Of a stretch of 26,105 nt of DNA, positions 631-22,670 are shown one piece after another. A program made the position numbers and the translations under genes. Position 1 is the stretch's first letter. Each line of letters opens with the position of its first letter. The notes under the pieces are model-generated. The model saw only the letters and a list, made by a program, of their open reading frames with translations, was not told the origin of the DNA and ran no database searches. Origin of the DNA: an uncultured Candidatus Saccharibacteria bacterium (GTDB lineage: Bacteria > Patescibacteriota > Minisyncoccia > Minisyncoccales > CAYTKG01); NCBI GenBank assembly GCA_964539465.1, contig CAZIIL010000001.1:1-26105 (forward strand). Direction: 5' to 3'.

Positions 631-1692
631 ATGAAAAAGAGATTATTAGTAATTGACGCTAATGCGTTGGTGCATCGGGCATATCATGCCTTGCCGCCGC
701 TGAAAACAAAGAAAGGCGAATTGGTCAACGCTGTTTATGGCTTTTTATCAGTTTTTCTGAAAACAATAAAAGAACTCAAGCCGGATTATGTGGCGGCTTG
801 TTTTGATATGCCGGGTCCGACCTTTAGGCATAAAGAGTATAAAGAATACAAGGCAACACGGCCCAAAGCGCCAGATGAATTATATGAACAGATTCCAAAA
901 ATCAAGAGCTTTTTAGATGTTTTTAATGTCCCAATTTTTGAGAAACAGGGATTTGAGGCGGACGATATTCTTGCTACTATAGCAGAGAGTATGAGTGGGA
1001 CTAATGGGACCAGTACGCAGCAAGGCAAAGATAAGCTCCGCCCTGGAGAAGAAATAGAAACAATCATACTCACCGGAGATATGGATATCTTGCAGTTGGT
1101 GGGCAAGAATACCAAAGTATTTGCTTTGAGAAAAGGCATAAAAGATATGGTTTTATACGATAGCGCTAAGGTTCAAGAAAAATACGGCCTCTCCCCTGCT
1201 CAAATATCAGATATGAAAGGGTTGATGGGCGACGCTTCTGACAATATTCCTGGAGTGCCGGGCATTGGGCCAAAGACAGCCAGCCAATTACTTCAAAACT
1301 TTGATACGCTGGAGGGGGTTTATAAAGACGGGCTGGCAGAGCCAGCCCGTCACAATAAGACCTATAAAACCAATAGGACCAATACGCTCGCCGAAGAGGC
1401 GGGGAAGAGACGGGCTGGCCAAGCCAGCCCGTCTGGCGGAGCTTCGCTCCGCAGGGAAAGCGCAATAAGCCCGAGAATAAAAGAACTGTTGCTAAAATAC
1501 AAGGAGCAAGTGTTTCTTTCAAGGATGCTGGCAACTCTTAGATATGATGTACCTGTTCGTTTTCAACTGCAGGATTGTTTGTGGAAGGATTTTAACAAAG
1601 AAAAAGCAGCCCAGATGCTAAAGGATTTCGAATTTTATAGTTTGATTCAAAGATTGCCTGGAGAGCAAAGAGAACAGCGCGCCTTGTTTTAA
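631..1692 (+). CDS. Stand-alone 5'-3' exonuclease/flap endonuclease (PolA N-terminal domain) with two repeat-derived in-frame insertions
   Basis: LVIDANALVHRAYHA, FEADDILAT, ILTGDMD, LMGDASDNIPGVPGIGPKTA (H3TH motif). No polymerase domain follows. Confidence 0.93.
   Translation: MKKRLLVIDANALVHRAYHALPPLKTKKGELVNAVYGFLSVFLKTIKELKPDYVAACFDMPGPTFRHKEYKEYKATRPKAPDELYEQIPKIKSFLDVFNVPIFEKQGFEADDILATIAESMSGTNGTSTQQGKDKLRPGEEIETIILTGDMDILQLVGKNTKVFALRKGIKDMVLYDSAKVQEKYGLSPAQISDMKGLMGDASDNIPGVPGIGPKTASQLLQNFDTLEGVYKDGLAEPARHNKTYKTNRTNTLAEEAGKRRAGQASPSGGASLRRESAISPRIKELLLKYKEQVFLSRMLATLRYDVPVRFQLQDCLWKDFNKEKAAQMLKDFEFYSLIQRLPGEQREQRALF
996..1045 (+). repeat. Degenerate mosaic element inside the exonuclease CDS
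   Basis: 996-1030 matches intergenic copy 10114-10148 at 30/35 nt; encodes GTNGTSTQQGKDKLRP. Confidence 0.75.
1328..1463 (+). repeat. Full mosaic element inside the exonuclease CDS
   Basis: ACGGGCTGGC-AGA-GCCAGCCCGT, degenerate 9-mers ending AATAGGACCAATACGC, CGCCGAAGAGGCGGGG, AGACGGGCTGGC-CAA-GCCAGCCCGTCT, GCGGAGCTTCGCTCCGC. Confidence 0.92.
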
Positions 1693-1707
1693 ACAAAAGG
1701 GGCAATG

Positions 1708-1716
1708 TGGTAAAAT
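1708..1716 (+). promoter_or_regulatory. Extended -10 promoter candidate for the signalling locus
   Basis: TG-G-TAAAAT about 50 nt upstream of the ATG at 1769. Confidence 0.4.
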
Positions 1717-1768: not shown

Positions 1769-2332
1769 ATGAACGAAGAAAAACAATATTCAGAAGAAGC
1801 GCAGTGGTTTCTGCACAATCTTCAACGACTTCAGGACGACTTTGCTGAAGCGGTTGGAGCTCAGATTGTAACAACAGATAAAGAAGGCGCTTTATTGACC
1901 AAGATGAGCGGACAGCAAAAGATTTGCCAGATTATTCAAAGGACAGAAAAAGGAAAACAAGGATGCCAAAATGCCTATGAAACAGCACTTTCGCTGGTAA
2001 AAAAGATGAAAGAAGCGGCATTTATGGATTGCCATGCCGGACTTGCTTCGCTCTGGGTCCCGATTAAGGTGAGAGATGAAATAGTGGGTTCTATTACTGG
2101 ATGTGGCGGGAGGTATGACCGTGGTGAATCAGAGGAAGAGTTAAGAGAAAAGTTTGCTGCCAAAGCAGATGAATTGGGAGTGGTAGAAGAAGATAAAAAA
2201 GAGTTTCTTGATGCGCTATCTGAAGTAAAAGTAATTACCGAAGAAGAAATGCGGAAAAGAGCTGAAAGATTGGCAAAATTGGTGGGAATATTGGCCCAAG
2301 AGACTGCTATGAGTGAGGTTTTTGGGCTGTGA
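1769..2332 (+). CDS. Stand-alone PocR ligand-binding (sensory) domain protein
   Basis: LQRLQDDFAEAVGAQIVTTDKEG..., CQII...C, CHAGLASLWVPIKVRDEIVGSI match the PocR domain pattern. Confidence 0.8.
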   Translation: MNEEKQYSEEAQWFLHNLQRLQDDFAEAVGAQIVTTDKEGALLTKMSGQQKICQIIQRTEKGKQGCQNAYETALSLVKKMKEAAFMDCHAGLASLWVPIKVRDEIVGSITGCGGRYDRGESEEELREKFAAKADELGVVEEDKKEFLDALSEVKVITEEEMRKRAERLAKLVGILAQETAMSEVFGL

Positions 2333-2333
2333 C

Positions 2334-2370
2334 GGGGAGGCGGGCTGGCTTTGCCAGCCCGCAATAGGAC
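2334..2370 (+). repeat. Mosaic element (single hairpin plus one 9-mer core)
   Basis: GGGAG-GCGGGCTGGC-TTT-GCCAGCCCGC-AATAGGAC. Confidence 0.85.
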
Positions 2371-2377
2371 AATCACT

Positions 2378-3244
2378 ATGGAAGCCAATACTGAATTTAA
2401 GGAAATCTCATCTAAATTAAGAGCTGATATTAATTCAACCAAGAAGATGTTGGCGGTTTTTGCTTTCTTAACCATTTTCTTAAAATTCATTATTGGCACT
2501 TCTATTCCCATCGAGATATTAATTCTGCTTGCTATCTGGTTTTGTCTTTATGCCTTTGTTTATTTTTATTTTCTGAAGATACCCAAGACATCTCAAGGTC
2601 TCTATAAATTTTATTTTTCTTACAGCATAGTTGATTTTCTGGTATTAACATTAATTGTCCACTATATGGGCGGCGCAGAGTGGATGGGCATTATTCTTTA
2701 TGTCATAACCCTAGTTTTAGCCGGACTGCTTCTGCCAAAAAAACAAACTATGCTCTTAAGCATTATTGCGTTTTCCTATTATTCAAGTTTGGTTATTTTC
2801 GAATATTTTGGTTTTATTTCTCATAAACCCCTCTTTCCCCTTGAGCCTGGGCTCTACCGTTCTCTCCCCTTTTTAATCACCCAACTTATTATTGGCAGCG
2901 CCGTCTTTTATTTTATTGCTGACTCGATTGGCAGTTTTTCAGAGAAATTAAGAGAACAAAGAAAACAATTGGATGAGGAAAGAGAGAAAGTAAATAAGGC
3001 CTATGAAATGGCGAAGGAGGCAGAAAGCGTTTTAGAGATAAAGGTTAAGGCGAGGACGAAAGAATTAGAAGAGTTAGCAGAAAACAGGGAGCAGATTATT
3101 AAGGAGAGAACAAAGGAACTTCAGGAAAAAGTAAAGGACTTAGAGAGATTCCAGAAGATTGCTGTTGATAGAGAATTGAAGATGGTAGAGCTAAAGAAAA
3201 CCCTTCGTTCTGCGAAAAAGCGGAATAAGGATTATGAAAATTAA
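2378..3244 (+). CDS. Multi-pass membrane sensor with C-terminal coiled coil and no catalytic domain
   Basis: About 6 hydrophobic helices, then ...KARTKELEELAENREQIIKERTKELQEKVKDLERFQKIAVDRELKMVELK. Start placed at ATG 2378 because the upstream 9 codons are repeat-derived. Confidence 0.75.
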   Translation: MEANTEFKEISSKLRADINSTKKMLAVFAFLTIFLKFIIGTSIPIEILILLAIWFCLYAFVYFYFLKIPKTSQGLYKFYFSYSIVDFLVLTLIVHYMGGAEWMGIILYVITLVLAGLLLPKKQTMLLSIIAFSYYSSLVIFEYFGFISHKPLFPLEPGLYRSLPFLITQLIIGSAVFYFIADSIGSFSEKLREQRKQLDEEREKVNKAYEMAKEAESVLEIKVKARTKELEELAENREQIIKERTKELQEKVKDLERFQKIAVDRELKMVELKKTLRSAKKRNKDYEN

Positions 3245-3246
3245 GT

Positions 3247-3843
3247 ATGCAAGAAAAACTTATAAAGAAAACAGCCGAGAGGTTGATGAATATTAAAGGA
3301 GAGGCAAGAGGCGTTATTTTAAAGACCGATGCTAAGTTTGTCGAAGGAAAAACTGGAGAAAAAGGATTAGAGCGATTGGAGCAGTGGCTCAAAGAGATGG
3401 GCTATCCAATAGAATATGAAAAGATTGAAACAATGGATTTTTACCCTATTGGTTTAAGAGTTATTTCCCTATTGGCAGTCCGAGAAGCTCTTGGTCTTTC
3501 TGATGATGGTGTCAGGAAGATGGGAAGGCATGCTCCAAAGATTTCTTTGGTGCTGAAACTATTTATGAAATTCTTTCTCTCCGTCGAAAAGACAATTGAG
3601 CAGGTTCCTGAGATGTGGAAGAAGCACTATACAATTGGAGAGTTAATTGCCGAAGCCGACGAAGAGAAGCGATATGCAAGGATAGAACTCAAGGGCCCAA
3701 TGATTCACCCCGTATTTTATCTTTATTTAGAGGGCTATTTCTCTATGGTTTTACAAATGGTTGTTAATAGCCCTGTTTTTTGTGAGGGAACGAAACGCGT
3801 CTCTGGGGAAGAGAGCTATTATGAATATCTGCTTAAATGGTGA
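3247..3843 (+). CDS. H-NOX/V4R-like ligand-binding protein
   Basis: KGEARGVILKTDAKFV...GLERLEQWL..MG..I...I..MDFYPIG and C-terminal HPVFYLYLEGYF...CEGTK...YEYLLKW resemble H-NOX/V4R (DUF2378-like) proteins. Starts 2 nt after the upstream stop. Confidence 0.6.
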   Translation: MQEKLIKKTAERLMNIKGEARGVILKTDAKFVEGKTGEKGLERLEQWLKEMGYPIEYEKIETMDFYPIGLRVISLLAVREALGLSDDGVRKMGRHAPKISLVLKLFMKFFLSVEKTIEQVPEMWKKHYTIGELIAEADEEKRYARIELKGPMIHPVFYLYLEGYFSMVLQMVVNSPVFCEGTKRVSGEESYYEYLLKW

Positions 3844-3911
3844 AAATCCACAGACATTTCTGTTGAGCCCGAGAAAATATTAAATGTTAGTCAACCAATA
3901 GATTAATCAAG

Positions 3912-5459
3912 ATGGATTCATTGCGACCTAAAAAAAGAGACATAAAAATCTCCTCTTTATTGGAGGACTTATCAATACTTGAAGATTACGCTCAAGACCT
4001 TTTTAATTTTTCCCCTCTACCCGTTTGTCTTATAAGCCCCGTAGGGGTGATATTAGAGGCCAATCCTGCTTTTGAAAAAATCTCCGGGTCTGAAATAGAT
4101 GGGATCATTGGTGAACCTGCTGAAAGATTCTTTGAAAAGGACCAAATTAAAGCATTGACAACTGATATTTTAAAAGGGAAGAGAGAGATTATCGAGGGCA
4201 GGGAGATAAAGTTTCTGCCTCAAGGGAAGCAATCTATGGTTGTCCATGTCTTTGCTAAGGCAAGGAATGACCAGAGCGGAGAAACCGTTGGTTATTTTTT
4301 AGGTTTTTTTAATTTAACAGAGATTAAAAATGCAGAGAAAGAATTAAAAAAGACCCAAAAAGCGCTTTTGAATATTTTAGAAGACACGAAAGGGGCAAAG
4401 GACAGGGCTGAGCAAGAAAAAGAAAAAACCCAGGCAATCATTACTAATTTTACGGACGGCCTTTTGGTTTTTGACAGGAAATATAGATTAATTCTGATAA
4501 ATCCTAAGGCAGAGAGTTTTTTGAATGTTGGGGGAAAAAAGATATATGGGAAATCTCTCTTGGAACTTGCAAAGATTTCGGAATGCAAGTCACTCATTAA
4601 ATTATTGGGAAACACAATTGAGGATATCTTCAGAAAAGAATTAGACATGGGAGAAGAATTTGTTTTAGAAGTATCAGCCATTTCTTTGAAAAAAGAAGCA
4701 GAGGGTTTTGGATACCTGGTTATTCTGCATGATATAAGCAGAGAAAAAATAATTGAAAGATTGAAGACCGAATTCGTCTCTATTTCTGCCCATCAATTAA
4801 GAACGCCTTTATCAGCTATTAAGTGGACATTGAAGATGTTGCTCGACGGAGATTTGGGAGGCATTACTGCGGAACAAAGAGAATTCTTGAACAGAACATA
4901 TGACTCAAACGAGAGGATGATTAATTTGATAAATTCTCTCCTTAATGTATCGAGGATTGAAGAGGGCAGATTTGTGTACAAGCCAGTTTTTGTCAATCTT
5001 GCTGCGATGACAAAGTCATTGTTAGATGATTATCAGGAGATGATAAAGCAGAAAGGGGTTATAATAAAATTTATAAAACCTTCTAAGCCGCTACCCAAGG
5101 TTTTTGCAGATAAAGAGAAAATAGGATTAGCGATACAGAATCTTATTGATAATGCCATCAGATATACTCCTGCCGGAAAGAAAGTAATCATTTCTCTGCG
5201 GCGCGTCAAAGATGAAGTTGAGTTTAACATCAAGGATGAGGGAGTGGGCATTCCTAAAAAGCAGCAGAATAGAATATTCACTAAATTTTTTAGAGGAACC
5301 AATGTGGTAAAGTTAGATACCGATGGTTCGGGTTTAGGGCTTTTTATCACCAAGAATATTATTAAAGCGCATAAAGGGAAAATTTGGTTTGAATCAAAGC
5401 AAAGAAAGGGCAGCACTTTTCGGTTCACCTTGCCCACTAAAACAACGCCAAAGGAATAA
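3912..5459 (+). CDS. Cytoplasmic PAS-PAS sensor histidine kinase (HisKA + HATPase_c)
   Basis: Two PAS-like segments, H-box EFVSISAHQLRTPL, N-box NLIDNAIRY, G1 DEGVGI, F-box FTKFFRG, G2 GSGLGL; no transmembrane segments seen. Confidence 0.93.
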   Translation: MDSLRPKKRDIKISSLLEDLSILEDYAQDLFNFSPLPVCLISPVGVILEANPAFEKISGSEIDGIIGEPAERFFEKDQIKALTTDILKGKREIIEGREIKFLPQGKQSMVVHVFAKARNDQSGETVGYFLGFFNLTEIKNAEKELKKTQKALLNILEDTKGAKDRAEQEKEKTQAIITNFTDGLLVFDRKYRLILINPKAESFLNVGGKKIYGKSLLELAKISECKSLIKLLGNTIEDIFRKELDMGEEFVLEVSAISLKKEAEGFGYLVILHDISREKIIERLKTEFVSISAHQLRTPLSAIKWTLKMLLDGDLGGITAEQREFLNRTYDSNERMINLINSLLNVSRIEEGRFVYKPVFVNLAAMTKSLLDDYQEMIKQKGVIIKFIKPSKPLPKVFADKEKIGLAIQNLIDNAIRYTPAGKKVIISLRRVKDEVEFNIKDEGVGIPKKQQNRIFTKFFRGTNVVKLDTDGSGLGLFITKNIIKAHKGKIWFESKQRKGSTFRFTLPTKTTPKE

Positions 5460-5506
5460 GAAAAAACGCCAAGGTTTTAGGTTTTATTCTCTTGACTCAA
5501 TTATTT

Positions 5507-5515
5507 TGTTATAAT
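5507..5515 (+). promoter_or_regulatory. Extended -10 promoter candidate (TGnTATAAT) upstream of the first receiver
   Basis: TG-T-TATAAT followed by an AT-rich leader; no properly spaced -35. Confidence 0.4.
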
Positions 5516-5563
5516 GGAAAGGTATTAAGTATAAAGTATAAAATTAAATATTAAATATAAAGT

Positions 5564-5947
5564 ATGGTGGCAAGCATAAGAAAAAAGATTTTATTAATAG
5601 AAGACGAAGAAATAATGATTGATTTACTCCAAAGGAAGTTGGAGAAAGAGGGCTACGAAGTAAAACTTGCTCGGGATGGAGAAGAGGGTTTAGAAAAAAT
5701 AAGACAGGAAATGCCGGATTTAGTTCTCTTAGACATTGTTATGCCGAAAGTGGGAGGGCTTGAGGTTATGGAAGAGATTAGCAAAGACCAAGAATTGAAA
5801 AAGAAACCAGTGATTATTATTTCCAATTCAGGCCAGCCAGTGGAATTAGAAAGAGTTAAGGAATTAGGGGCTCGAGATTGGTTGATAAAAACTGAATTTG
5901 ACCCGCAGGAGGTATTAGATAAAGTTAAGCAGCAGATAGGAAAATAA
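5564..5947 (+). CDS. Single-domain response regulator (receiver only)
   Basis: ILLIEDEE, PDLVLLDIVMP (phospho-Asp), IIISNSG, LIKTEFDP. Confidence 0.93.
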   Translation: MVASIRKKILLIEDEEIMIDLLQRKLEKEGYEVKLARDGEEGLEKIRQEMPDLVLLDIVMPKVGGLEVMEEISKDQELKKKPVIIISNSGQPVELERVKELGARDWLIKTEFDPQEVLDKVKQQIGK

Positions 5948-6120
5948 ATCTCAAATCTTTCACCCACCCGAATTTTCGAAGAAAATTTGAGTGGACAAGA
6001 ATCTACATCTCAAAACCTTAAATCTTTTAGTTTTTCATCTATTAGTTTTGAGATTTGGCTGACCTGCCTCGCCGAAGACGACGAGTCGAGGCGGGAAGAC
6101 TCGTTCGGTGAGACGAGGCG
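5947..6120. repeat. Composite repeat region: heptamer inverted array, short palindrome and GC hairpin module
   Basis: TCTCAAAAC (6008-6016) pairs with GTTTTGAGA (6046-6054); AATTTTC-GAA-GAAAATT; CCTGCCTCG...CGAGGCGGG. Confidence 0.6.
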
Positions 6121-6146
6121 TTAAAATATATTAATTTTAACTGACA

Positions 6147-6524
6147 ATGGGAAACGCCACTAAAAAAATTCTTATTATCGAGGATGATAAATTTCTGAGA
6201 CAGTTGATTGTCCGCAAATTAACAGAGGAGGGCTATGATATCTCTGAGGCAGTGGATGGAGAGGAGGGAGTAAAGAAAGTGAAAGAGATAATGCCCGACC
6301 TGATTTTGTTAGACCTGATACTGCCCGGTATTGATGGTTTTGAGGTTTTATCTCGGATAAAGAGCGATGAGCCCACCAAGAAGATTCCGGTGATTATCCT
6401 TTCTAATCTTGGCCAGAAAGAAGATGTTGAAAGGGGTTTGAATCTGGGAGCGGTTGATTACTTGATAAAAGCGCATTTTACTCCAGGCGAGATTGTTGAG
6501 AAAATAAGAAGCGTTTTGGAGTAA
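6147..6524 (+). CDS. Single-domain response regulator (receiver only)
   Basis: ILIIEDDK, PDLILLDLILP, IILSNLG, LIKAHFTP. Confidence 0.93.
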   Translation: MGNATKKILIIEDDKFLRQLIVRKLTEEGYDISEAVDGEEGVKKVKEIMPDLILLDLILPGIDGFEVLSRIKSDEPTKKIPVIILSNLGQKEDVERGLNLGAVDYLIKAHFTPGEIVEKIRSVLE

Positions 6525-6526
6525 AA

Positions 6527-6680
6527 ATAGGACGCATATGCCGCAAGGCAAAGTGAAACTTTGCCTTGTGTTGCCAGCCCGCTCTTGGTAGCGGACTTTT
6601 CTTTTCTGTGGAAAACCTGTGTATAAAGTGTTCGATGCCGGGCATCGAACACTTTATAAAAACTGGCCACTGCCAGTTTT
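6527..6680 (+). repeat. Mosaic element with paired DnaA-box-like motifs and an 18-bp palindrome
   Basis: ATAGGAC, CGCAAGGCAAAGTGAAACTTTGCCTTGTG, GCCAGCCCGC, TGTGGAAAA-CC-TGTGTATAA, TATAAAGTGTTCGATGCC-G-GGCATCGAACACTTTATA, AAAACTGGC-CACT-GCCAGTTTT. Confidence 0.88.
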
Positions 6681-7609
6681 TAAATTTGAACGATTAAGAG
6701 GTCTATGGCGGACTCGGCGTCAATCTTTCCGGTTTTAATATCAAGGTCTGTCTGAATAATCTTTTGGTATATTTTTCTGAGCTCTTTGAGTTCAAACCCC
6801 TGGCTTAGTTGGTAGATTTTCCTGATTTGAAACGGACGCCAACCCAGATTCCAGATTGACTGTTGATTCTTGAGATGTTCTTTCATAAGCAGCAGTTTTC
6901 TAAACTCAAAAGCGATCATAGAAAGCAGATACAAGGGAGATTCACCTCTTTCTAAGTCCTGATGAAGAAAAGCAATCGCTTTCTGTTTTTGTTTGGAGGC
7001 AATAAGGTCCAATGTTTTAAAGATGCTTTCTTGAGAATCAGTCCTTATAATGATTTCTATATCTGATTCTGATATAGATGTCTTATCGTTTCTTTTATAA
7101 CTAACTAATTTTTGAATTTCGTTGGAAAGACGCCATAAGTCATTTCCTGTTGCTTTAAGCAAAAGCTGGAGGGCTTTTGGTTTTATTCTTGCCCCATATG
7201 CGGAGAATTCTTTTTTTGTCCAGCTTTCTAAAGCATTGGTTTTCAGCGGCTTAAACTCCTGCGTCTGACTATTTTTCTTTAAGGCAATAAAAAAAGGGTT
7301 CTTTGCGGGAACCTCTTTCCTCTCATAAAACACAATAATATCTTTTGCTCCAGAAAGCCTTTTAAGAGCTTTTATAGATTTCTGTTGGAATAAAGGATTC
7401 GCAGATACATTCTTTAGAACGAATAATCTATTTTCTCTAAATATAGACCGAGTTTGAAATTCATCCCGAAAGTCCTTAAACAGAGAATTTTCTAAATCAA
7501 AAACTCTTAGGTTGAGACCATTCTTGTGGACTTTTTCGTATTCTTCGATAATTTCTTTGAGTTTGCGCAGCGACCTGAAATTATCTTTTCCATAAAGAAA
7601 AATTATCAT
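6680..7609 (-). CDS. holA: DNA polymerase III subunit delta
   Basis: MIIFLYGKD.FRS, GNDLWRLSNEIQKL, IFKTLDLIA, DLDIKTGKID; adjacent to rpsT. Confidence 0.88.
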   Translation of the reverse strand: MIIFLYGKDNFRSLRKLKEIIEEYEKVHKNGLNLRVFDLENSLFKDFRDEFQTRSIFRENRLFVLKNVSANPLFQQKSIKALKRLSGAKDIIVFYERKEVPAKNPFFIALKKNSQTQEFKPLKTNALESWTKKEFSAYGARIKPKALQLLLKATGNDLWRLSNEIQKLVSYKRNDKTSISESDIEIIIRTDSQESIFKTLDLIASKQKQKAIAFLHQDLERGESPLYLLSMIAFEFRKLLLMKEHLKNQQSIWNLGWRPFQIRKIYQLSQGFELKELRKIYQKIIQTDLDIKTGKIDAESAIDLLIVQI

Positions 7610-7629
7610 CCGTTTATTCTATAAACCTC

Positions 7630-7893
7630 TTATGCTGATTTATTCAACATCTTTGTTATTCTGGACTTTTTTCTGGACGCATTGTTCTTTTTTATTACGC
7701 CCGTCTTGGCTGCCTTGTCCAGCGCCTTAGAATATTGAGGTAATATTTTTTTAGCTTCTTCAGTTTGTTTTTGAGAAGATAATCTATCAATTTTTTTAAA
7801 AAGATTTTTGATGGTTCTTTTCTTTCGTAAATTTCTAACTCTTCTTTTCTGGCTTTGACGAAGCGCTTTTTTTGCAGATTTTATGATTGGCAC
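7630..7893 (-). CDS. rpsT: 30S ribosomal protein S20
   Basis: MPIIKSAKKALRQS.KRR.RN ... LDKAAKTGVIKKNNASRKKSR; GTG start. Confidence 0.96.
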   Translation of the reverse strand: MPIIKSAKKALRQSQKRRVRNLRKKRTIKNLFKKIDRLSSQKQTEEAKKILPQYSKALDKAAKTGVIKKNNASRKKSRITKMLNKSA

Positions 7894-7991
7894 ATTATTT
7901 GGTTCGCCTTCCCCTATAATAGGTTCAGCTTATCTCTAATTAAACTTGAGATTTAGGGTTTAATAAGGTTAAGGATTTTATCTCTGAGATT

Positions 7992-8021
7992 ATAGTAGTA
8001 TATTTTTGCAGTTTTTGTCAA
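7992..8021 (-). promoter_or_regulatory. Sigma70 promoter candidate for rpsT-holA
   Basis: Minus strand TTGACA-18 nt-TACTAT, with an overlapping TATAAT. Confidence 0.45.
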
Positions 8022-8032
8022 TTTTTTAGGCA

Positions 8033-8108
8033 AAATAGGACCGATAGGCCGCAAGGCAAAGTTTCATTTTGCCTTGCGGGAGAGCGAGCAGATAAAATCT
8101 GCTCGCTC
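8033..8108 (+). repeat. Mosaic element between the divergent rpsT and ruvA genes
   Basis: ATAGGACCG-ATAGG, CCGCAAGGCAAAGTTTCATTTTGCCTTGCGG, GAGCGAGCAGAT-AAA-ATCTGCTCGCTC. Confidence 0.9.
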
Positions 8109-8225
8109 GAAATGTACAACATGGAAAGTTGCGCAAGAGGAGGGCTATCTTCCAGATATAATGTATAAAAGGAAATCGAGAATATGATATAATGTTTTAA
8201 TACTTAATAACCCCAACACTAATCT

Positions 8226-8796: not shown

Positions 8797-10113
8797 ATGG
8801 AGAACAAAGTGCTTTGCTTTTTTATTAATCAATATCATTTTTTGTGGGCTCTATTGGGCGCTATATTCTTTGGTTTTTTATCTTGTCTTCACAGATGCTT
8901 TAATAAGCGGGCAAAAAAGATAAAGATTATCGGAGTTACTGGGACAAGCGGCAAATCCACCGTGATTGATTTGACAGGCAATATATTAGAGGAAGCGGGC
9001 TACAGGGTTGCAACTCTGTCTTCAATCAAATTCAAGATTGGCAACCAAGAGCAGAAGAACAAAATGAGAATGACAATGCCCGGTCGGGCTGTTATTCAGA
9101 GATTTCTTTGGCAGGCAATGAGGGCTGGTTGTGAATATGCCATATTAGAGATTACATCCGAGGGAATCTTGCAGCACAGGCATAGATTCATTGATTTTAA
9201 TGCAGCGGTTTTTACCAATCTAAGTCCTGAGCATATTGAACGCCATGGCTCATTTGAGAACTACAGAGAAGCAAAAGCAAGGTTTTTTAGAGCAGTGAAA
9301 AAGACACATATAATCAATTTAGACGATAAGAATGCTGATTATTTTTTGCAATTTTCAGCAGGCAGGAAATATCTTTATAATCTCAAATCTGAATCGTCAA
9401 TCGCCAATGGTGAAATTACTGCAGAGGGCGCGGCAGTTTCAAGTTCCGGAGTAAGTTTTTCTGTAAGAGGTGTTAAGTTTAATCTGAAATTATTAGGCAG
9501 ATTTAATATCTATAATGCTCTTGCTGCAATATGTGTCGGTCTTTCTCAAGGCATTGATTTGGAAACTTGTAAAAAAGGATTAGAAAAGATAAGGGGCGTC
9601 TCGGGGAGGATGGAGTTGATCATTTCTAAGCCCTTTAGGATTTTTGTTGATTACGCCATTACCCCCAACGCATTAGAGCAGGTTTATCAAACAATTAGAC
9701 AGAACTTTCTCTCTATGGATTCTCTAAATGCACAGGGCGGGAAAATGATTTGTGTTTTTGGTTCTTGCGGCGGGGGAAGGGATAAGTGGAAGAGGCCGGT
9801 TATAGGAAGATTGGCGGCTCAATATTGCGACAAGGTGATTCTTACTAACGAAGACCCTTATGGCGAAGACCCAGAGCAGATTTTATTGGAAATAAAATCT
9901 GGAATTCCGAACGAAAAAATGCCGATAGTAAGCTTGATTTTAGACAGGCGAGCAGCTATTAAGAAAGCGCTTGATTTAGCTCGAGAAAACGACACTGTTA
10001 TTATTACTGGCAAGGGTTGCGAGCCCTCTATGTGCTTGGCAAAAGGGAAACAGATAGCATGGGACGACAGGCAAGTGGTGAGAGAAGAATTTGAGAAATT
10101 GACTAAGAGATAA
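8797..10113 (+). CDS. murE: Mur ligase, MurE-like (UDP-N-acetylmuramyl-tripeptide synthetase family)
   Basis: IGVTGTSGKST, LEITSEG, FTNLSPEHIERHG, Y.EAK, GRFNIYNALAA, VSGRME, FGSCGGGRDKWKRP, TNEDPY, IITGKG. Confidence 0.8.
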   Translation: MENKVLCFFINQYHFLWALLGAIFFGFLSCLHRCFNKRAKKIKIIGVTGTSGKSTVIDLTGNILEEAGYRVATLSSIKFKIGNQEQKNKMRMTMPGRAVIQRFLWQAMRAGCEYAILEITSEGILQHRHRFIDFNAAVFTNLSPEHIERHGSFENYREAKARFFRAVKKTHIINLDDKNADYFLQFSAGRKYLYNLKSESSIANGEITAEGAAVSSSGVSFSVRGVKFNLKLLGRFNIYNALAAICVGLSQGIDLETCKKGLEKIRGVSGRMELIISKPFRIFVDYAITPNALEQVYQTIRQNFLSMDSLNAQGGKMICVFGSCGGGRDKWKRPVIGRLAAQYCDKVILTNEDPYGEDPEQILLEIKSGIPNEKMPIVSLILDRRAAIKKALDLARENDTVIITGKGCEPSMCLAKGKQIAWDDRQVVREEFEKLTKR

Positions 10114-10222
10114 TAGGACGAATAGGACCAATACGCTGCAAGGCAAAGTGAAACTTTGCCTTGCGGGGAGGCGGGCTGGCAAAGCCAGCCCGCCCAGCGA
10201 AGCTTCGCTCCGCAGAAAAAGC
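10112..10222 (+). repeat. Mosaic element between murE and archease
   Basis: ATAGGACGA-ATAGGACCA-ATACGC, GCAAGGCAAAGTGAAACTTTGCCTTGC, GCGGGCTGGC-AAA-GCCAGCCCGC, GCGAAGCTTCGCTCCGC. Confidence 0.92.
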
Positions 10223-10227
10223 GAAAT

Positions 10228-10632
10228 ATGAAGAATTTTGAGATTTTAGAACATAGCGCAGACCTGAAGATTAGGGCTTTTGGCAGCGATAAAGAGCAGC
10301 TTTTTTGGAATATGATGCGGGGAATGCAGGCGAGCTTGCGGTCTAACCCAAGCGAACAGAAAACAGAAACAAAAATAATGGTTCAATCCGAAGACCTGCT
10401 ATCTTTATTAGTTGATTTTTTATCAGAAATTAATTATCTAAACGAGATTAATCAAGAGGTTTATTACAGAATAAAGTTTGATAAATTCTCCGACACCGAG
10501 TTAGAAGCTGAACTTTCTGGCTACAAGGTCAAAAGGTTTGGGTTGCAAATCAAGGGAGTTACCTTTCATGATTTAGATGTGAGCCAGAAACAAGATGGGC
10601 AATGGGAGGCAACGGTTTTGTTTGATATATAA
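10228..10632 (+). CDS. Archease
   Basis: FEILEHSADL.IRAFG, LLVDFLSE, IKGVTFH, C-terminal LFDI; immediately upstream of rtcB. Start moved to ATG 10228. Confidence 0.92.
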   Translation: MKNFEILEHSADLKIRAFGSDKEQLFWNMMRGMQASLRSNPSEQKTETKIMVQSEDLLSLLVDFLSEINYLNEINQEVYYRIKFDKFSDTELEAELSGYKVKRFGLQIKGVTFHDLDVSQKQDGQWEATVLFDI

Positions 10633-10636
10633 AATT

Positions 10637-13588
10637 ATGGGGAAAAAGATATTTAAAAAAATTAATGATTATCTGTGGGAGATTCCGGCAAGCCACCGTA
10701 GGTTTATGAGGGTTCCAGCGCGGATTTATGCTTCTGAGAAAATATTAGAAGATGTGGAACCCGATGCCTTGGAGCAATTAATCAATGTTGCGTCTTTGCC
10801 TGGAATTGTCAAATATTCTTTTGCTATGCCAGACATTCATACCGGCTATGGTTTTGTTATTGGCGGCGTGGCGGCTACAAAACTTCCAGAAGGCGTGATT
10901 TCTCCCGGCGGTATCGGTTTTGACCAGAATTGCACCGTTCCCAACACAAGAGTTTTATCAAGCATGGGTTTTTACTTACCCATTAAGGACCTAGAAAAAA
11001 ACAAAACGAAAGTAAGATTTGTTGATATTGATAAGAATAATTTAGGAACTTCAGAGGTTATCCGTTTCATAAAGCAGTATAATAATCCAAGTATCTATAA
11101 GATAACTACAGAATCAGGGGAAGAATTAGAAGTTACAAAGGATCATCCCATTCAAACGGAGAGTGGCATGAAGGAGGTTAGAAATGTTAAAAATGGGGAG
11201 AAAGTATTAATTTATCCCTTCAAAGGAGTGGAATTCCAATATCCTGTTTCAGATGTTATTTTGAATGAGGAAAAATTTAGAAAAATTCTGAAAAAATTCA
11301 ATAAAACTGAGAAAGGAAATGCTATTCTGCAAATTTTAAATTATATTAAATTCCGAGGGTTTTTGCCCTTGAGATATAATTCTCCTTCCTTACCTCATAT
11401 TTTAAAAATAATGGGGTTTATTTTTGGCGATGGGGCTGTGACAATTAATAAAGACGGAAAGGGAACCGTACAGTTTTATGGGAAAAAGGAGGACTTGGAA
11501 CAAATCCGTGAAGATGTAAAAAGAATTGGCCTTGTGCCCTCGAGAATATATTCCCGAGAAAGAAACCATTCTATTACTAATTTTTATGGCAAGCAGGAAT
11601 TTACGACAACCGAGCAACACTTTAAGGTAACTACCACTGCCTTCGCACTTTACTTGGTGGCTCTCGGGACACCCTATGGCCTTAAAGCGCATCAGGAATA
11701 TAGAGTTCCAGAATGGATTTTCAATTGTCCATTATGGCAAAAGAGATTGTTTTTAGCATCTTTTTTCGGAGCTGAACTTTCAAAGCCTTCAACCTCTAAT
11801 AATAAGTATAATCTTCATGCACTACAGTTTAGTGTAAGCAAGAAAGTAGAGTTGAAAGAAAATGCAAAAATGTTTTTAGAAGATATTAAAAGACTTTTAA
11901 GCGGTTTTGAGATCGGAAGTTCGCCTATTCAAGAAGTCCCTGGTTATCAATATAATGGTAAACTCGGGAAGACAACTGCTTTTAGGCTACATATTAATGG
12001 AAATAGTGAAAATCTTATAAGATTTTTTGAGTCAATTAGCTATGAATATAATCAAGAAAGACAAAGAGAGGCTTGTTTAGCGGCCAGTTACTTAAAAAGG
12101 AAATTGAGAATAGTAGAAATTAGGACTAAGACAAGGGACAGGGCATTTGAGCTTTATAAACAGGGAGAAAAAATAAAAAATATCATTAAAAGCCTTTCCA
12201 GCAGATATGCTCCTCCTCAATTTATTAAACACTCGTTTTTCAAGAGTAAAAGAGGAAAACCAAGAATCTCTTTTGATTTTCTATCCTTTGAAGAATACAA
12301 GAAGAAATATGCTTTTGGGGAGAGTGGTTTGGTTTGGGAGAAAATTGAAAAGATAGAAGAGATTCCATACTCAGGTTCTGTTTTTGACATTACTATCAAT
12401 GATATAAATCATAACTTTATTGCTAATAACTTTGTTGTTTCAAATTGCGGGATTCGTGTTCTGAAAACAGAATACAAGAAAGAGGAAATTATGCCTTTTA
12501 TTGATAGATTGGCAACAGAAATGCAGAGACGGGTTCCGTCTGGATTAGGCAGAGGACATAAAACAAAGTTAAGCGTAGCGCAGATAGACAAAGTATTGAA
12601 AAATGGTGTTTCCTATCTTGTGAGCCAAGGATATGGCGACGAGCAAGATATAGAAAATTGCGAGGCAAGAGGCAAGATGGAGCAGGCAGATGTAGCTACG
12701 GTTTCAGAAAGAGCTAAAAATAGAGGCAGGAACCAATTGGGTACATTGGGCAGCGGCAACCATTTTCTTGAAGTCCAAAAAGTTGAGGAAATTTTTGACG
12801 AACAAACAGCCAAAGTTTTTGGGCTTTTTGAGAATCAAGTAGTAGTAATGATTCATACGGGTTCCAGAGGGTTAGGGCATCAAAATTGTACTGATTATTT
12901 GAGGATTGTAATGAAAGCAATGCCGAAGTATGGGATAAGCCTGCCGGATAAGGAATTGGCGTGTGTTCCATTTAATTCTTCTGAGGGGCAGAGATTTTTT
13001 GGGGCTATGTCGGCTGCTGCTAACTTTGCGTGGGGAAATCGACATATGATAAGCCATTATGTCAGGAGAGCGTGGCAGGATGTTTTGGGCAAGGAAGCAA
13101 AGCTTGACTTGCTTTATGATGTTGCCCATAACATTGCTAAGGTTGAAGAGCATATAATTGATGGCAAGAAAATGAAATTATGTGTTCATCGCAAAGGCGC
13201 GACAAGGGCTTTCCCGCCAGGGCATTTGGAGATTCCAGCGCAATATAGGACTGTTGGCCAGCCGGTTTTAATTCCTGGTTCTATGGGAACTGCTTCTTAT
13301 ATTTTAGCCGGAACAGAACAAGGCAGCCCATCTTTTTTCTCAACCTGCCACGGCGCTGGCAGAAGGATGTCGCGAACCAGAGCAAGAAAAACTATTTCAG
13401 GGGAACAAGTTATTGAGGAGTTGAAAAGAAAAGGAATCTTGGTAAGATGTTATTCAGTAAGGGGTATTGCCGAAGAAGCGCCTCTTTCTTATAAAGATGT
13501 TGATAATGTGGTTGAGGTTGTGCATCAGGCAGGCCTGGCAAAAAAAGTAGCGAGGTTGGTGCCCTTGGCTGTTATTAAAGGAGAATAA
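10637..13588 (+). CDS. rtcB: RNA-splicing/repair ligase RtcB, intein-containing (478-aa extein)
   Basis: MPDIHTGYG, GGIGFDQN|CGIR, GSGNHFLE, HTGSRG, HNIAK, HRKGATRA, STCHGAGR. Confidence 0.96.
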   Translation: MGKKIFKKINDYLWEIPASHRRFMRVPARIYASEKILEDVEPDALEQLINVASLPGIVKYSFAMPDIHTGYGFVIGGVAATKLPEGVISPGGIGFDQNCTVPNTRVLSSMGFYLPIKDLEKNKTKVRFVDIDKNNLGTSEVIRFIKQYNNPSIYKITTESGEELEVTKDHPIQTESGMKEVRNVKNGEKVLIYPFKGVEFQYPVSDVILNEEKFRKILKKFNKTEKGNAILQILNYIKFRGFLPLRYNSPSLPHILKIMGFIFGDGAVTINKDGKGTVQFYGKKEDLEQIREDVKRIGLVPSRIYSRERNHSITNFYGKQEFTTTEQHFKVTTTAFALYLVALGTPYGLKAHQEYRVPEWIFNCPLWQKRLFLASFFGAELSKPSTSNNKYNLHALQFSVSKKVELKENAKMFLEDIKRLLSGFEIGSSPIQEVPGYQYNGKLGKTTAFRLHINGNSENLIRFFESISYEYNQERQREACLAASYLKRKLRIVEIRTKTRDRAFELYKQGEKIKNIIKSLSSRYAPPQFIKHSFFKSKRGKPRISFDFLSFEEYKKKYAFGESGLVWEKIEKIEEIPYSGSVFDITINDINHNFIANNFVVSNCGIRVLKTEYKKEEIMPFIDRLATEMQRRVPSGLGRGHKTKLSVAQIDKVLKNGVSYLVSQGYGDEQDIENCEARGKMEQADVATVSERAKNRGRNQLGTLGSGNHFLEVQKVEEIFDEQTAKVFGLFENQVVVMIHTGSRGLGHQNCTDYLRIVMKAMPKYGISLPDKELACVPFNSSEGQRFFGAMSAAANFAWGNRHMISHYVRRAWQDVLGKEAKLDLLYDVAHNIAKVEEHIIDGKKMKLCVHRKGATRAFPPGHLEIPAQYRTVGQPVLIPGSMGTASYILAGTEQGSPSFFSTCHGAGRRMSRTRARKTISGEQVIEELKRKGILVRCYSVRGIAEEAPLSYKDVDNVVEVVHQAGLAKKVARLVPLAVIKGE
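10931..12445 (+). mobile_element. Intein with LAGLIDADG homing endonuclease (505 aa)
   Basis: N-terminal Cys (CTVPNTRV), block B (TKDHPI), block C IMGFIFGDG, block E FLASFFGAEL, C-terminus FDITI..NHNFIANNFVVSN followed by Cys+1. Confidence 0.93.
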
Positions 13589-13948: not shown

Positions 13949-14892
13949 AGATTCAAGAAATATACAATTTAGCTCTTCAAATGGGCAAGGAGAGCGATTT
14001 CCGAGGAGCCGAGAGTATAGAAAAAATGCTAAAGAGACGAAGAGAATTGTTCGATAAACTGCCAGAAGAAAAGAAAAAGGATTTTGATAGAGATGATCTG
14101 ATTAACCCTTTCCCCGACTCAAGGGTTCTCAATGTGTCAGAAGATAAAGAAATAAAAAAGATTATGTTCGGCATTGACATTGCTCCAGCCGAACTCTTAA
14201 TGGCAAAGGAGATTGAAGGCATTGACCTAGTTATATCTCATCATCCTTTGGGAAAAGGATTAGCCAAATTATGGAGTGTGATGCAGCTTCAATGCGATGT
14301 CTTAGCTTATTATGGCGTGCCCATAAACATTGCCGAGGGTTTGATGACAGAAAGGATATCAGAGGTGGCTCGCGGGATTAATGCAATTAACCACCAAAGG
14401 ACAGTAATGGCTGCCGAACTATTGGGCTTTAATCTAATGTGCCTGCATACTATTTGCGATAATTTAGCCGCCAGATTCTTAAGAGAAAATATTGAGTCGG
14501 CAAAACCAGAAAGAGTTGGGGACATTATTGATTTACTCAAAAAACTCCCTGAATATCAAAAAGCGGTAAGCATTGGGGCGGGGCCAAAAATATTTGTCGG
14601 CAGTAGAGAGAACAGATGCGGCAAGATTGCCCTGACAGAGATTACTGGCGGCACCGAGGGCTCATCTAAGATTTATCAGAAAATAGCTCAAGCAGGTATT
14701 GGTACGGTGATAGGAATGCATATGAGCAAGGAGCATTATGAAGAAGCCAAGACAGCTTTCATTAATGTAGTGATTGCTGGGCATATGTCTTCTGATTCCT
14801 TGGGAATAAATATATTCTTAGATGAGTTGGAGAAAAGAGGAATTGAAATTGTCCCCTGTTCTGGTTTAACTCGTGTGTCGCGGGTGAAGTAG
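13945..14892 (+). CDS. NIF3/YqfO-like dinuclear metal-centre protein
   Basis: KKIMFGID, DLVISHHP, MCLHTICDN, IGTVIGMH, IAGHMSSDSLG. Confidence 0.8.
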   Translation: MKIQEIYNLALQMGKESDFRGAESIEKMLKRRRELFDKLPEEKKKDFDRDDLINPFPDSRVLNVSEDKEIKKIMFGIDIAPAELLMAKEIEGIDLVISHHPLGKGLAKLWSVMQLQCDVLAYYGVPINIAEGLMTERISEVARGINAINHQRTVMAAELLGFNLMCLHTICDNLAARFLRENIESAKPERVGDIIDLLKKLPEYQKAVSIGAGPKIFVGSRENRCGKIALTEITGGTEGSSKIYQKIAQAGIGTVIGMHMSKEHYEEAKTAFINVVIAGHMSSDSLGINIFLDELEKRGIEIVPCSGLTRVSRVK

Positions 14893-14897
14893 AACGT

Positions 14898-15072
14898 ATA
14901 GGACCAATAGGACCAATACGCCCGCCGAAGAGGCGGGGGAAGAGCAAGCAGATTTTATCTGCTTGCTCTGCGGAGCTCCGCTCCGCAGGGAAAAGAGCAA
15001 AGCTTCGCTTTGCAGGAAAAAACTGTGGAAAATCTGTGCATAAAGTGTTCGATGCCGGGCATTGAACACTTT
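14898..15072 (+). repeat. Mosaic element with paired DnaA-box-like motifs and a long palindrome
   Basis: ATAGGACCA x2-ATACGC, CCGCCGAAGAGGCGG, AGAGCAAGCAGAT-TTT-ATCTGCTTGCTCT, GCGGAGCTCCGCTCCGC, GCAAAGCTTCGCTTTGC, TGTGGAAAA-TC-TGTGCATAA, AAAGTGTTCGATGCC-G-GGCATTGAACACTTT. Confidence 0.92.
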
Positions 15073-15083
15073 TGAGAAGCTAT

Positions 15084-17520: not shown

Positions 17521-17668
17521 ATAGGACACATAGGAAAAAATAGGACGAATAAGAAAAATAGGACATATAGGACCGATAGGACCAATACGCCCGCCGAAGA
17601 AGCGGGGAAGAGCCAGCCCGCGCAGCGGAACTTTACTCCGCTTTGCTCTGGGGAGCGTCGGGCAACGC
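17521..17668 (+). repeat. Mosaic element with the longest 9-mer array (7 units), abutting the tRNA 3' end
   Basis: ATAGGACAC, ATAGGAAAA(A), ATAGGACGA, ATAAGAAAA, ATAGGACAT, ATAGGACCG, ATAGGACCA, then ATACGC, CCGCCGAAGAAGCGG, GCCAGCCCGC, GCGGAACTTTACTCCGC. Confidence 0.92.
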
Positions 17669-21922: not shown

Positions 21923-21987
21923 GATACATAGGACCAAATAGGATTAATACGCCGCAAGGCAAAGTGAAACTTTGCCTTGCGGCGTAT
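21918..21987 (+). repeat. Mosaic element with a perfect 19-bp hairpin
   Basis: 9-mer-like units followed by ATACGCCGCAAGGCAAAGT-GAA-ACTTTGCCTTGCGGCGTAT. Confidence 0.92.
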
Positions 21988-22023
21988 GTAATTGTTCAAT
22001 CTTCCAGATTAAACAATTGGAGA

Positions 22024-22075
22024 TATTGCTTTTTCGGCAGATTTGTGTTATAAGGGCACAATGTTGCTCTTTACT
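22024..22075 (+). promoter_or_regulatory. Duplicated promoter/leader, copy 1
   Basis: TTGCTT-17 nt-TATAAG; 47/52 identical to 22595-22646; followed by AGGAGGTGA. Confidence 0.75.
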
Positions 22076-22090
22076 TTAGGAGGTGAAGAC

Positions 22091-22510
22091 ATGAAGAGGT
22101 TTTTCTTGCTCGAAGTTTCTTTACTGATTCTTGCTTGTGGACTCTTCGCCGCTGGCGCGGTGGCTGAGCCCGCTCTTCCTGCTCCTGTTTCCGCTCCTGT
22201 CCTCGCTCTTCCCCCATCTCCTGTTCTTCCTCTCCCCGTTCCTTTTACCTCTCCTCTTTCTACTCCTACTTCTACCCAAGAGCTCCGCATCAAGTATCTT
22301 CAATACGATGAACAGGGCATCGCCATCCTGGAAGTGACAGTCGATGGTGGAGAGATAAAGACAGTAGGGCTTCTTGAGGGTCGTCCCGTCCGTATCCAAA
22401 TCTGGAACGCGGACGGAGAGGTCATCAAGGACATCTACTTTCTCCTATTAGAGGATGGGAACATCTACTATAAGGAGAAAAAGGAGGACGAATGGACAAG
22501 TTTGGCTTAG
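22091..22510 (+). CDS. Secreted hypothetical protein with Pro-rich linker
   Basis: SD AGGAGGTGA then ATG 22091; signal-peptide-like MKRFFLLEVSLLILACGLFAAGAVA; Pro/Ser/Thr linker; acidic beta-rich C-domain. Confidence 0.75.
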   Translation: MKRFFLLEVSLLILACGLFAAGAVAEPALPAPVSAPVLALPPSPVLPLPVPFTSPLSTPTSTQELRIKYLQYDEQGIAILEVTVDGGEIKTVGLLEGRPVRIQIWNADGEVIKDIYFLLLEDGNIYYKEKKEDEWTSLA

Positions 22511-22544: not shown

Positions 22545-22594
22545 TATTTGGGTGTTGTGTAACGAGGTCAGACCTTGTTACAGTGCCTTGAGGG

Positions 22595-22646
22595 TATTGC
22601 TTTTTCGGCAGATTTGTGGTATAAGAATACAATATTGCTCTTTACT
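22595..22646 (+). promoter_or_regulatory. Duplicated promoter/leader, copy 2
   Basis: TTGCTT-17 nt-TATAAG with extended TG; 47/52 identical to copy 1. Confidence 0.75.
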
Positions 22647-22670
22647 ATAGTTCACCTTAGGAGGTGAGAA

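Follow-up and report, generated by a model that had tools for sequence, protein, structure and literature searches.

Stand-alone H-NOX proteins control the kinases encoded next to them (PMC4436077, PMC8738867), and it is an established mode of signalling, e.g. in archaea (PMC5847659), that receiver-only regulators exert their output by contacting other proteins. Such an output is in itself not anomalous. The membrane sensor PilS has minimal loops and senses the pilin PilA within the bilayer (PMC6058289). The zinc site of MopR, with the cysteines C155, C181 and C189, is structural and located ~10 Å from the ligand pocket (PMC9556785). Here we analyse a stretch of 26,105 nt from an uncultured Candidatus Saccharibacteria bacterium (assembly GCA_964539465.1, contig CAZIIL010000001.1, positions 1 to 26,105), referred to as the window, which is the part of this genome covered by our analysis. 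It contains a locus of six signalling genes encoding a stand-alone PocR protein (P1), a kinase-less membrane sensor (P2), an H-NOX-fold protein (P3), a soluble histidine kinase and two receiver-only response regulators (REC1 and REC2). We propose that the locus represents a two-component phosphotransfer system built of separate polypeptides, with accessory sensors regulating one kinase, and put the probability of this reading at roughly 0.6.

Patescibacteria, also known as the Candidate Phyla Radiation (CPR), possess very small genomes, most of them have not been cultivated, and little is known of how they sense a host or their environment. At least 30 species-level lineages have retained the system described here. 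The literature on CPR two-component systems and on V4R or H-NOX proteins with kinases was searched, and no description of this locus was found.

Gene content of the locus

An earlier note, made from the letters of the window alone, had proposed a 'disassembled' signalling system of six co-oriented genes. The six open reading frames (ORFs) are present as described, all on the plus strand (Table 1). P1 consists of a lone PocR domain. It matches PF10114 with an E-value of 3e-31 and 108.7 bits (cutoff 23.9), whereby residues 16-178 of the protein cover positions 6-160 of the 162 profile positions, and Pfam shows no other domain in it. The kinase is composed of PAS1 (~28-137), a helical linker (138-178, ..KALLNILED..), PAS2 (179-278), HisKA (285-352, E 2.9e-16 in Pfam) and HATPase_c (400-510, E 3.8e-28) and has no true transmembrane (TM) segment. 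Its H, N, G1, F and G2 boxes are complete (His294, NLIDNA, DEGVG, FTKFF and GSGLGL, respectively). PF00072 spans both receiver proteins as a whole, and acidic pocket, phospho-acceptor Asp, Ser, aromatic switch residue and Lys are intact in REC1 (E13-D14, D57, S87, W106, K109) as well as in REC2 (E12-D13-D14, D56, S86, Y105, K108). According to Pfam and NCBIfam none of the six proteins carries a DNA-binding, GGDEF/EAL or chemotaxis domain. The lone PocR sensor, the soluble PAS-PAS kinase, the two receiver-only regulators and the lack of such an output domain, all of them claimed before, are thus borne out by the domain searches.

Co-conservation among related loci

The survey was based on one genome per species and comprises 44 loci encoding a P3 relative, onto which the window proteins and the flanking genes were mapped. 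The kinase is present in 39 of them. P3, kinase, REC1 and REC2 occur together in 30 loci, and most of the remaining ones stop at a contig edge. A P2-type sensor bearing the C-terminal tail described below is found in 36. Since the four-gene set and the P2-type sensor recur to this extent, the expectation that the genes are conserved together holds for five of the six. It does not hold for PocR, which was found in only one of the 44 loci.

The usual gene order is T2SSE (minus strand) / TsaE, 5'-3' exonuclease, variable sensors, P2, one to five copies of P3, kinase, REC1, REC2, Fpg, holA / S20 (minus strand), with short spacers or overlapping genes. The P3 gene directly adjoins the kinase gene in 33 loci. 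In 20 of those the two genes overlap, 12 times by exactly 10 nt, which suggests translational coupling. The P3 paralogs within a locus are divergent. Upstream, exonuclease homologs directly precede the sensor genes in 27 loci (in L001 the exonuclease lies inside the cluster), and a gene for a T2SSE ATPase is divergently oriented in 23. Downstream, holA and S20 flank the genes in 25 loci. The slot ahead of P2 varies by lineage and may hold PocR, FIST, periplasmic binding proteins or stand-alone GAF, HAMP, Cache or PAS-only sensors.

The named relatives are all metagenome-assembled genomes (MAGs) of Patescibacteria/CPR, among them Nealsonbacteria, Paceibacteria and Wildermuthbacteria. Three loci whose cluster is of the same bacterial type are labelled Pacearchaeota (L040), Enterobacterales (L047) and Hadarchaeota (L050) and are probably mis-binned or mislabelled MAG contigs.

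P2 and the kinase are separated within a signalling helix

The AlphaFold2 (AF2) model of P2 (pLDDT 84.8) exhibits six TM helices, the last of which runs unbroken into a helix of ~100 residues reaching the C-terminus. P2 thus comprises a six-TM domain (~residues 33-195) and a signalling-helix tail (residues 196-297). Against the PilS-like 6TM domain (PF25323) the window copy scores 23.7 bits and stays below the cutoff of 27, while 18 of 41 P2 orthologs match this model with a best E-value of 3.9e-8. Model and orthologs agree with the proposal of a membrane sensor that ends in a coiled coil.

The tail is built of two S-helix-like units, ARTKEL and ERTKEL, followed by a cap (ERFQKIAVDRELKMVELKK). 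Its consensus reads ..ARt.El..RTkeLqek..eLE.F.kl.VGRElkM.ELKkeik. It is the most conserved part of the P2 family, and the invariant residues cluster there. R235-T236 and R253-T254 vary little, if at all, across the 41 orthologs, and an ERT signature in a heptad coiled coil is present. A homolog search with P2 revealed that the last ~100 residues recur with 45-69% identity on HAMP-only, dCache+HAMP, PAS-only and GAF proteins, and no kinase domain was found in these non-orthologous, tail-bearing sensors. In all kinase-less sensors of the loci the tail ends at most 30 residues from the C-terminus. It is internal only in fused kinases (L001, L032).

These fused kinases allow the split and the continuous form to be compared. 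The kinase of L001 (582 aa) equals P2 (32-271) joined to the kinase (137-510), and in L032 and L006 this coiled coil likewise immediately precedes the PAS-DHp-CA core of the kinase. In the junction alignment the fused forms read ...ARTEELE...RRTEELQRRIQEL-GNSRIALMNILED...-PAS. The window P2 ends with ...ARTKELEE...ERTKELQEKVKDL, followed by the cap, and the window kinase begins with an extra N-terminal PAS and then resumes at ...EKELKKTQKALLNILED... Its linker is the counterpart of the C-terminal half of the signalling helix found in the fused relatives. The break point of the window falls within this helix, and because the fused relatives place it there, P2 is read as one half of a split kinase. 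In this sense the term 'disassembled' is well chosen. As fused and split forms are comparable, the locus is relevant to the question of how a signal is transmitted along a helix of this kind. The simplest reading of the recurring tail would be that exchangeable sensor modules all signal to a single kinase via this shared element.

The nominal start codon of P2 (TTG 2351) sits inside a perfect repeat hairpin (2339-2362), hence ATG 2378 (MEANTEF...) is likely the more plausible start. The source annotation gives a truncated version of 192 aa with an internal start, and the orthologs support a length of ~280-297 aa.

P3 belongs to a family with H-NOX fold and probable V4R relationship

P3 has no sequence match in Pfam (even at E 10), NCBIfam or the PDB (phmmer). 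Its structure was predicted with AF2 on the basis of 45 homologs (pLDDT 92.6, pTM 0.89) and compared to the PDB using Foldseek. The top 43 matches are all H-NOX proteins, covering ~190 columns with TM-scores of 0.44-0.68 and E-values down to 5e-7. They extend over the full length and include Tt H-NOX, the proteins of Nostoc and Shewanella and the beta1 subunit of soluble guanylate cyclase, with TM-scores of 0.55-0.68 for these full-length matches. Weaker, partial matches were obtained for V4R, YslB and TRAPP-Bet3. Since the model matches H-NOX over its full length, the former description as 'H-NOX/V4R-like' holds at the level of the fold.

It probably does not extend to H-NOX function. The P3 family profile gave an insignificant hhalign probability of 0.3% against Tt H-NOX (sequence identical to 1u4h). 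The heme-propionate motif Y-x-S-x-R is found in none of 107 distinct P3-family sequences, whereas the Tt H-NOX control shows it at residue 131. A proximal His was searched for by regular expression and column conservation, and no His column of the family is invariant: H127 is kept in 53 of 69 members (Tyr in 13) and H154 in 56, and H192 is part of the zinc tetrad described below. With the motif absent and no His column invariant in the family, P3 is very unlikely to be a heme or NO sensor.

The sequence relationship of the family rather points to V4R. Pfam V4R (PF02830) is matched at E<=0.01 by 13 of 45 members (best E 1.3e-5), the window copy not being among them, and a tandem member reaches 35.2 bits at a cutoff of 31. 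Against the PDB the family profile yields only a weak match to MopR (E 0.4). A tetrad C158/E181/C184/H192 occurs in 65, 63, 65 and 63 of 69 members, respectively. In the alignment it coincides with the part of the MopR V4R domain that holds the zinc site.

Searching 1.84 billion representatives with the P3 profile resulted in 973 clusters at 50% identity, 327 of them at E<=1e-30. The members are nearly all stand-alone proteins of ~200 aa, apart from a few tandem doubles (P0048 and P0049, 405 and 410 aa) and one fusion to a receiver. Judged by these searches, P3 represents a sizeable, undescribed family without a Pfam model of its own, i.e. a set of stand-alone putative sensors with H-NOX fold that are devoid of heme signatures.

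Kinase and receivers

WalK, PnpS and PhoR were considered as identities of the kinase and rejected, as the scores in NCBIfam stay below the respective cutoffs (258.7 vs 725, 250.4 vs 400 and 200.7 vs 334). Similarity to these models is limited to the PAS-DHp-CA core.

REC1 and REC2 form two distinct orthogroups with 45% identity between them, each with its own alpha4-beta5-alpha5 signature. The REC1 orthogroup is 64.6% identical internally (signature SNSGQPVE..LGAkDWLiKTeFDP) and the REC2 orthogroup 69.1% (LSNLGQ..lGAvDyLiKAHFTPgEI). The phospho-site residues are kept in 34 REC1 and 35 REC2 orthologs, and in L011 both proteins are fused into a single REC-REC protein. The closest solved structures are generic, namely PhoP, YycF, PhoB, RpaA, PleD, DivK and the stand-alone RR468. 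In their identity to the window copy both receivers exceed ribosomal protein S20 (Table 1). This degree of conservation suggests that the system controls something central and would fit conserved protein partners. Together with the one to five divergent P3 paralogs per locus it argues for diversifying inputs and a constrained output. P3 is placed on the input side, because in a relative from the Dehalococcoidia (L044) P3 and kinase are paired with an ordinary regulator consisting of a receiver and a winged helix-turn-helix domain.

The earlier note had suggested pilus motors or host attachment as output. This is weakly hinted at by the PilS-like domain of P2 and by the T2SSE gene that lies divergently upstream in the 23 relatives mentioned above but is missing from the window. 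No further kinase, receiver or T2SSE gene is found in the remainder of the window, and no pilin gene in the window either. An output in cell cycle or replication is equally speculative. It might be proposed from the tight packing with exonuclease, Fpg and holA and by analogy to pilin-PleC-DivK in Caulobacter (PMC7196804).

Two observations in related loci concern additional proteins. L054 harbours extra receiver-only genes upstream of the exonuclease gene (7709-8086) and after a Mur ligase gene (15934-16323), so that in some lineages the one kinase is surrounded by three or four receivers of the stand-alone type. An unannotated protein of ~235 aa without Pfam match is encoded between kinase and REC1 in L005 (10805-11518) and L028 (12105-12809) and could be an additional component.

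Proposed mechanism and alternatives

In the mechanism we propose, the soluble PAS-PAS-HisKA-HATPase kinase would stand at the centre, with its activity being set by non-covalent accessory sensors. The P2 tail would most likely pack on the helical linker or the N-terminal PAS of the kinase and thereby restore in trans the helix which the fused relatives have in one piece. P3 would act as a cytoplasmic, ligand-binding accessory sensor that does not bind heme in the manner of H-NOX. It would be co-translated with the kinase and probably bind it directly, as stand-alone H-NOX proteins do. PocR might add an optional third input in this lineage. The kinase would phosphorylate both paralogous receivers, which in turn may act through protein-protein contacts with conserved partners. 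That several inputs converge on one kinase, as had been claimed, is backed by the fusions and by the synteny with its variable sensor slot. Directly observed are the domain content, the intact catalytic residues, the co-conservation, the fusions and the place where the break falls, while physical contacts, ligands and output are inferred.

A further-reaching version would regard the sensors as 'plug-in' receptors of Patescibacteria. Diverse kinase-less sensors (6TM, HAMP, Cache, GAF, PAS) would share the double-S-helix tail and the VGRELKMxELKK cap. By docking non-covalently onto one common soluble kinase, the tail would supply in trans what this kinase needs for a full signalling helix. P3 would be the second, co-translated input, and the two receivers would relay to a core process such as replication/cell cycle or type IV pilus dynamics. 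We put this forward tentatively and consider it rather doubtful in its entirety. The shared C-terminal tail may serve quite generally to dock sensors that can be exchanged for one another, which would be of interest for receptor engineering.

Several observations weigh against the proposed mechanism and are given here together with the alternatives they favour. No sequence similarity between the tail and the window kinase is detectable (BLASTP E 5.3), hence the docking site on the kinase is a guess. Moreover, tail-bearing sensors coexist with already fused kinases that carry their own sensor and tail (L001, L006, L032), so the tail may serve a different partner or do no more than dimerise the sensors. 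PAS1 as docking site was not adopted, because the kinases accompanied by tail sensors in these three loci have no PAS1. PocR is often unlinked as well: it adjoins P3 in just the one locus of the survey, and the PocR genes of L051 and L052 have no two-component gene within 9 kb. The missing similarity, the coexisting fused kinases and the unlinked PocR would suit a system formed by P3, kinase and the two receivers only, with P2 and/or PocR signalling elsewhere and the tail dimerising sensors or docking a different partner. However, in the P2-kinase fusions the break point lies inside one continuous helix, the P2-type gene precedes P3 and kinase with short spacers in 36 of the 44 loci, and PocR occupies an identical slot in the window, L053, L054 and L028. 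We therefore regard the reduced system as unlikely.

The contexts of PocR deserve separate mention. Stand-alone PocR proteins form a family with 63-83% identity, at least 120 clusters and a length of 183-195 aa in every member. The closest relative (L053) shows the same six-gene layout and the same downstream genes, and in L055 PocR adjoins a different, small kinase-receiver pair. As PocR shares its slot in close relatives yet is found in unlinked contexts elsewhere, genomic context marks it as an optional, lineage-specific addition outside the conserved core.

A second alternative concerns the output side. One receiver could serve as a phosphate sink or, like Spo0F, as a relay, and an Hpt protein, a DNA-binding regulator or another effector encoded at an unlinked position in the genome would provide the actual output. 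Two paralogous receivers with distinct conserved surfaces are in line with such a division of labour, and both resemble receivers of the OmpR/PhoB family as well as Spo0F and DivK. The additional receiver-only genes of L054 and the DNA-binding regulator of the Dehalococcoidia relative point in the same direction. Against it, neither an Hpt protein nor a regulator with output domain is encoded within ~9 kb in any of ~50 loci, this genome being viewed over 26 kb. A role as relay or sink with an unlinked output is improbable in our estimation.

The mechanism favoured here places P3 upstream of the kinase. The fusion of a receiver to P3 (P0123, 354 aa, from a single Logan contig) speaks against a strict assignment of this kind, since it implies that domains of the P3 type can follow a receiver as well. 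P3 could accordingly be the output, with phosphorylated receivers binding P3-family effectors as an in-trans version of the fusion, and a precedent exists in Galperin's MetOD1, an HNOB/V4R-like domain that serves as output domain of methanogen response regulators (PMC5847659). Several observations argue against this. The P3 gene lies upstream of and overlaps the kinase gene, not the receiver genes. P3 varies widely in copy number and sequence, while the receivers are nearly fixed. P3 and kinase of the Dehalococcoidia relative work with an ordinary DNA-binding regulator, and the fusion is a single case among the top 150 representatives of the P3 family. A role of P3 as effector appears very unlikely to us.

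Two further points against the proposed mechanism concern the integrity of the proteins. In the window P3, the only P3 copy of this genome, the tetrad is replaced by Y158, G181, R184 and Y192, with all remaining conserved residues being retained. The tetrad was lost independently in several other, intact members of the family and is therefore probably structural and dispensable. In the kinase, the H-box HQLRTPL (window 4791-4811, residues 294-300) shows Gln after the phospho-His and is invariant in at least 41 CPR orthologs; the relative from the Dehalococcoidia has the canonical HE (HEIKTPL). The residue next to the phospho-His is usually Asp or Glu, and this acidic residue assists autophosphorylation, hence the kinetics of the kinase may be unusual. 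That the zinc-less P3, the Gln and the repeat insertions between PocR and P2 and between REC1 and REC2 reflect loss of function in a decaying locus is hardly credible, as none of the six reading frames is interrupted, HQLRTPL does not vary across the lineage and is no lesion of this genome, the tetrad is missing from other intact members while the window P3 keeps everything else that is conserved, and the nearest relative (L053) carries the same six genes.

Transcription signals and other features of the window

The coordinates of all features are summarised in Table 1.

Table 1. Features of the locus and its flanks in the window, with the median identity of the related proteins to the window copy
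Feature	Position	Strand	Basis or remark	Median identity
5'-3' exonuclease gene	631..1692	+	ORF; syntenic upstream flank, not a signalling part	49%
Promoter-like site TTTAAA, 17 nt spacer, TAAAAT, TG extension	1688..1716	+	ahead of PocR; consensus scan, weak	
P1, stand-alone PocR protein, 187 aa	1769..2332	+	PF10114	
GC-rich palindromic repeat at PocR/P2 junction	2333..2362	.	100% complementary to 10171-10194	
P2, kinase-less membrane sensor	2351..3244	+	6TM_PilS-like, AF2 model, orthologs, fusions	38%
P2 tail module	2936..3244	+	two (A/E)RT units and cap	
P3, stand-alone H-NOX-fold protein, putative V4R-superfamily branch, 198 aa	3247..3843	+	AF2 and Foldseek, family	44%
Soluble histidine kinase, 515 aa	3912..5459	+	Pfam/NCBIfam domains	52%
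REC1, receiver-only response regulator, 127 aa	5564..5947	+	PF00072, E 2e-25	67.6%
REC1-REC2 spacer, 199 nt	5948..6146	.	repeat copy at ~6068-6095	
REC2, receiver-only response regulator, 125 aa	6147..6524	+	PF00072, E 7e-27	72.8%
Terminator-like hairpin after REC2, probable end of transcription unit	6569..6594	+	consensus scan, weak; repeat modules 6502-6664 follow	
holA (6680-7609) and rpsT/S20 (7630-7893)	6680..7893	-	syntenic downstream flank, not signalling parts	holA 43%, S20 62%

The neighbouring genes are housekeeping genes (5'-3' exonuclease, holA, S20, RuvA, Mur ligase, archease, RtcB, MetRS, LeuRS). A strong terminator is predicted at 575-606 before the exonuclease gene and is, like the signals in the table, a weak signal at consensus level. 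The spacer between REC1 and REC2 is longer than in related loci (1-139 nt) and shows an RNA fold z-score of -3.4.

Short GC-rich palindromic repeats resembling REP or MITE elements are dispersed over the window. They consist of TAGGACNAATAGGAC units and hairpins (GCAAGGCAAAGTGAAACTTTGCCTTGC, GGCGGGCTGGCAAAGCCAGCCCGC, GCGGAGCTTCGCTCCGC) and are found at ~455-575, 979-1044, 1321-1467, 2333-2362, 6068-6095 and 6502-6664 and further at 8010-8128, 10097-10228, 14888-14988, 15023-15081, 17531-17641 and 21913-22009. Most of them are intergenic, often between convergent genes or beside a tRNA-Arg gene. The copies at 1321-1467 lie within the exonuclease ORF (631-1692) without breaking the frame, and the protein has an extra segment (...KTYKTNRTNTLAEEAGKRRAGQASPSGGASLRRES...). 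With 353 aa the exonuclease compares to 297-335 aa in most relatives, which looks like an in-frame insertion of a repeat element.

The RtcB ORF (10595-13588) encodes 997 aa and is about twice the usual size. Judged from its translation, the catalytic domain contains a large insertion with LAGLIDADG-like motifs and a ...VVSNCGIRV re-entry, which is probably an intein. Finally, a sequence of 63 nt is duplicated with 86% identity (22017-22079 and 22588-22650) upstream of the ORFs 22043-22510 and 22671-23276. Both ORFs start with hydrophobic, signal-like segments, and the region has the highest GC content of the window (0.48).

Comparison with known systems

The pairs of H-NOX and HnoK (HnoX-HnoK in Shewanella and Vibrio as well as the Silicibacter pair) likewise have a small sensor gene with H-NOX fold immediately upstream of a kinase without a membrane sensor of its own, and there, too, a single kinase acts on two or more response regulators. 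In contrast, P3 shows neither detectable sequence similarity to H-NOX nor its heme signature, and the family has a Cys/Glu/Cys/His site of the V4R type. The regulators of our locus furthermore carry no EAL, HD-GYP or HTH output.

On the sequence level the closest relationship of the P3 family is to the V4R or XylR_N-V4R domains of the phenol-responsive regulators MopR, PoxR and DmpR. The V4R domain of MopR is fused to an AAA+ sigma-54 activator, whereas P3 stands alone (or in tandem) beside a kinase.

A further system for comparison is PilS-PilR from Pseudomonas aeruginosa. The six-TM domain of P2 probably belongs to the PilS-like 6TM family, which 18 of the 41 orthologs match. PilS is a single polypeptide (6TM-PAS-HisKA-HATPase) that signals to a DNA-binding regulator of the NtrC type. 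Here the 6TM domain is separate and the regulators have no output domain.

The tail itself resembles the S-helix (Anantharaman, Balaji, Aravind 2006; PMC1592074). Its two (A/E)RT units in heptad register match the 'ERT' signature, on which the assignment is based. In the fused relatives the tail is positioned between sensor domain and PAS/kinase module, as it should be for an S-helix. In P2, however, it atypically ends the polypeptide and is extended by an extra conserved cap (eLE.F.kl.VGRElkM.ELKk).

Like the known receiver-only regulators (CheY, Spo0F, DivK, RR468 from Thermotoga and the stand-alone receivers of archaea; PMC5847659), REC1 and REC2 consist of a single receiver domain with a complete set of phospho-acceptor residues. 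In proteins of this type the output has to proceed via a relay or by contacts with other proteins. They differ by the absence of a chemotaxis operon and of CheA, Hpt or a known target nearby. They also differ by their organisation in two orthogroups, which are always paired and unusually conserved, and by the motif K-[TA]-x-F-[DT]-P following the conserved Lys. The usual motif of receivers at this Lys is K-P.

Taken together, the closest kind of system is a histidine kinase regulated by an accessory sensor as in H-NOX/HnoK, combined with a receiver-only output of the sort often seen in archaea (PMC5847659). What sets the locus apart is the split signalling helix, a tail that many kinase-less sensors have in common, P3 as a new family and two ultra-conserved receivers.

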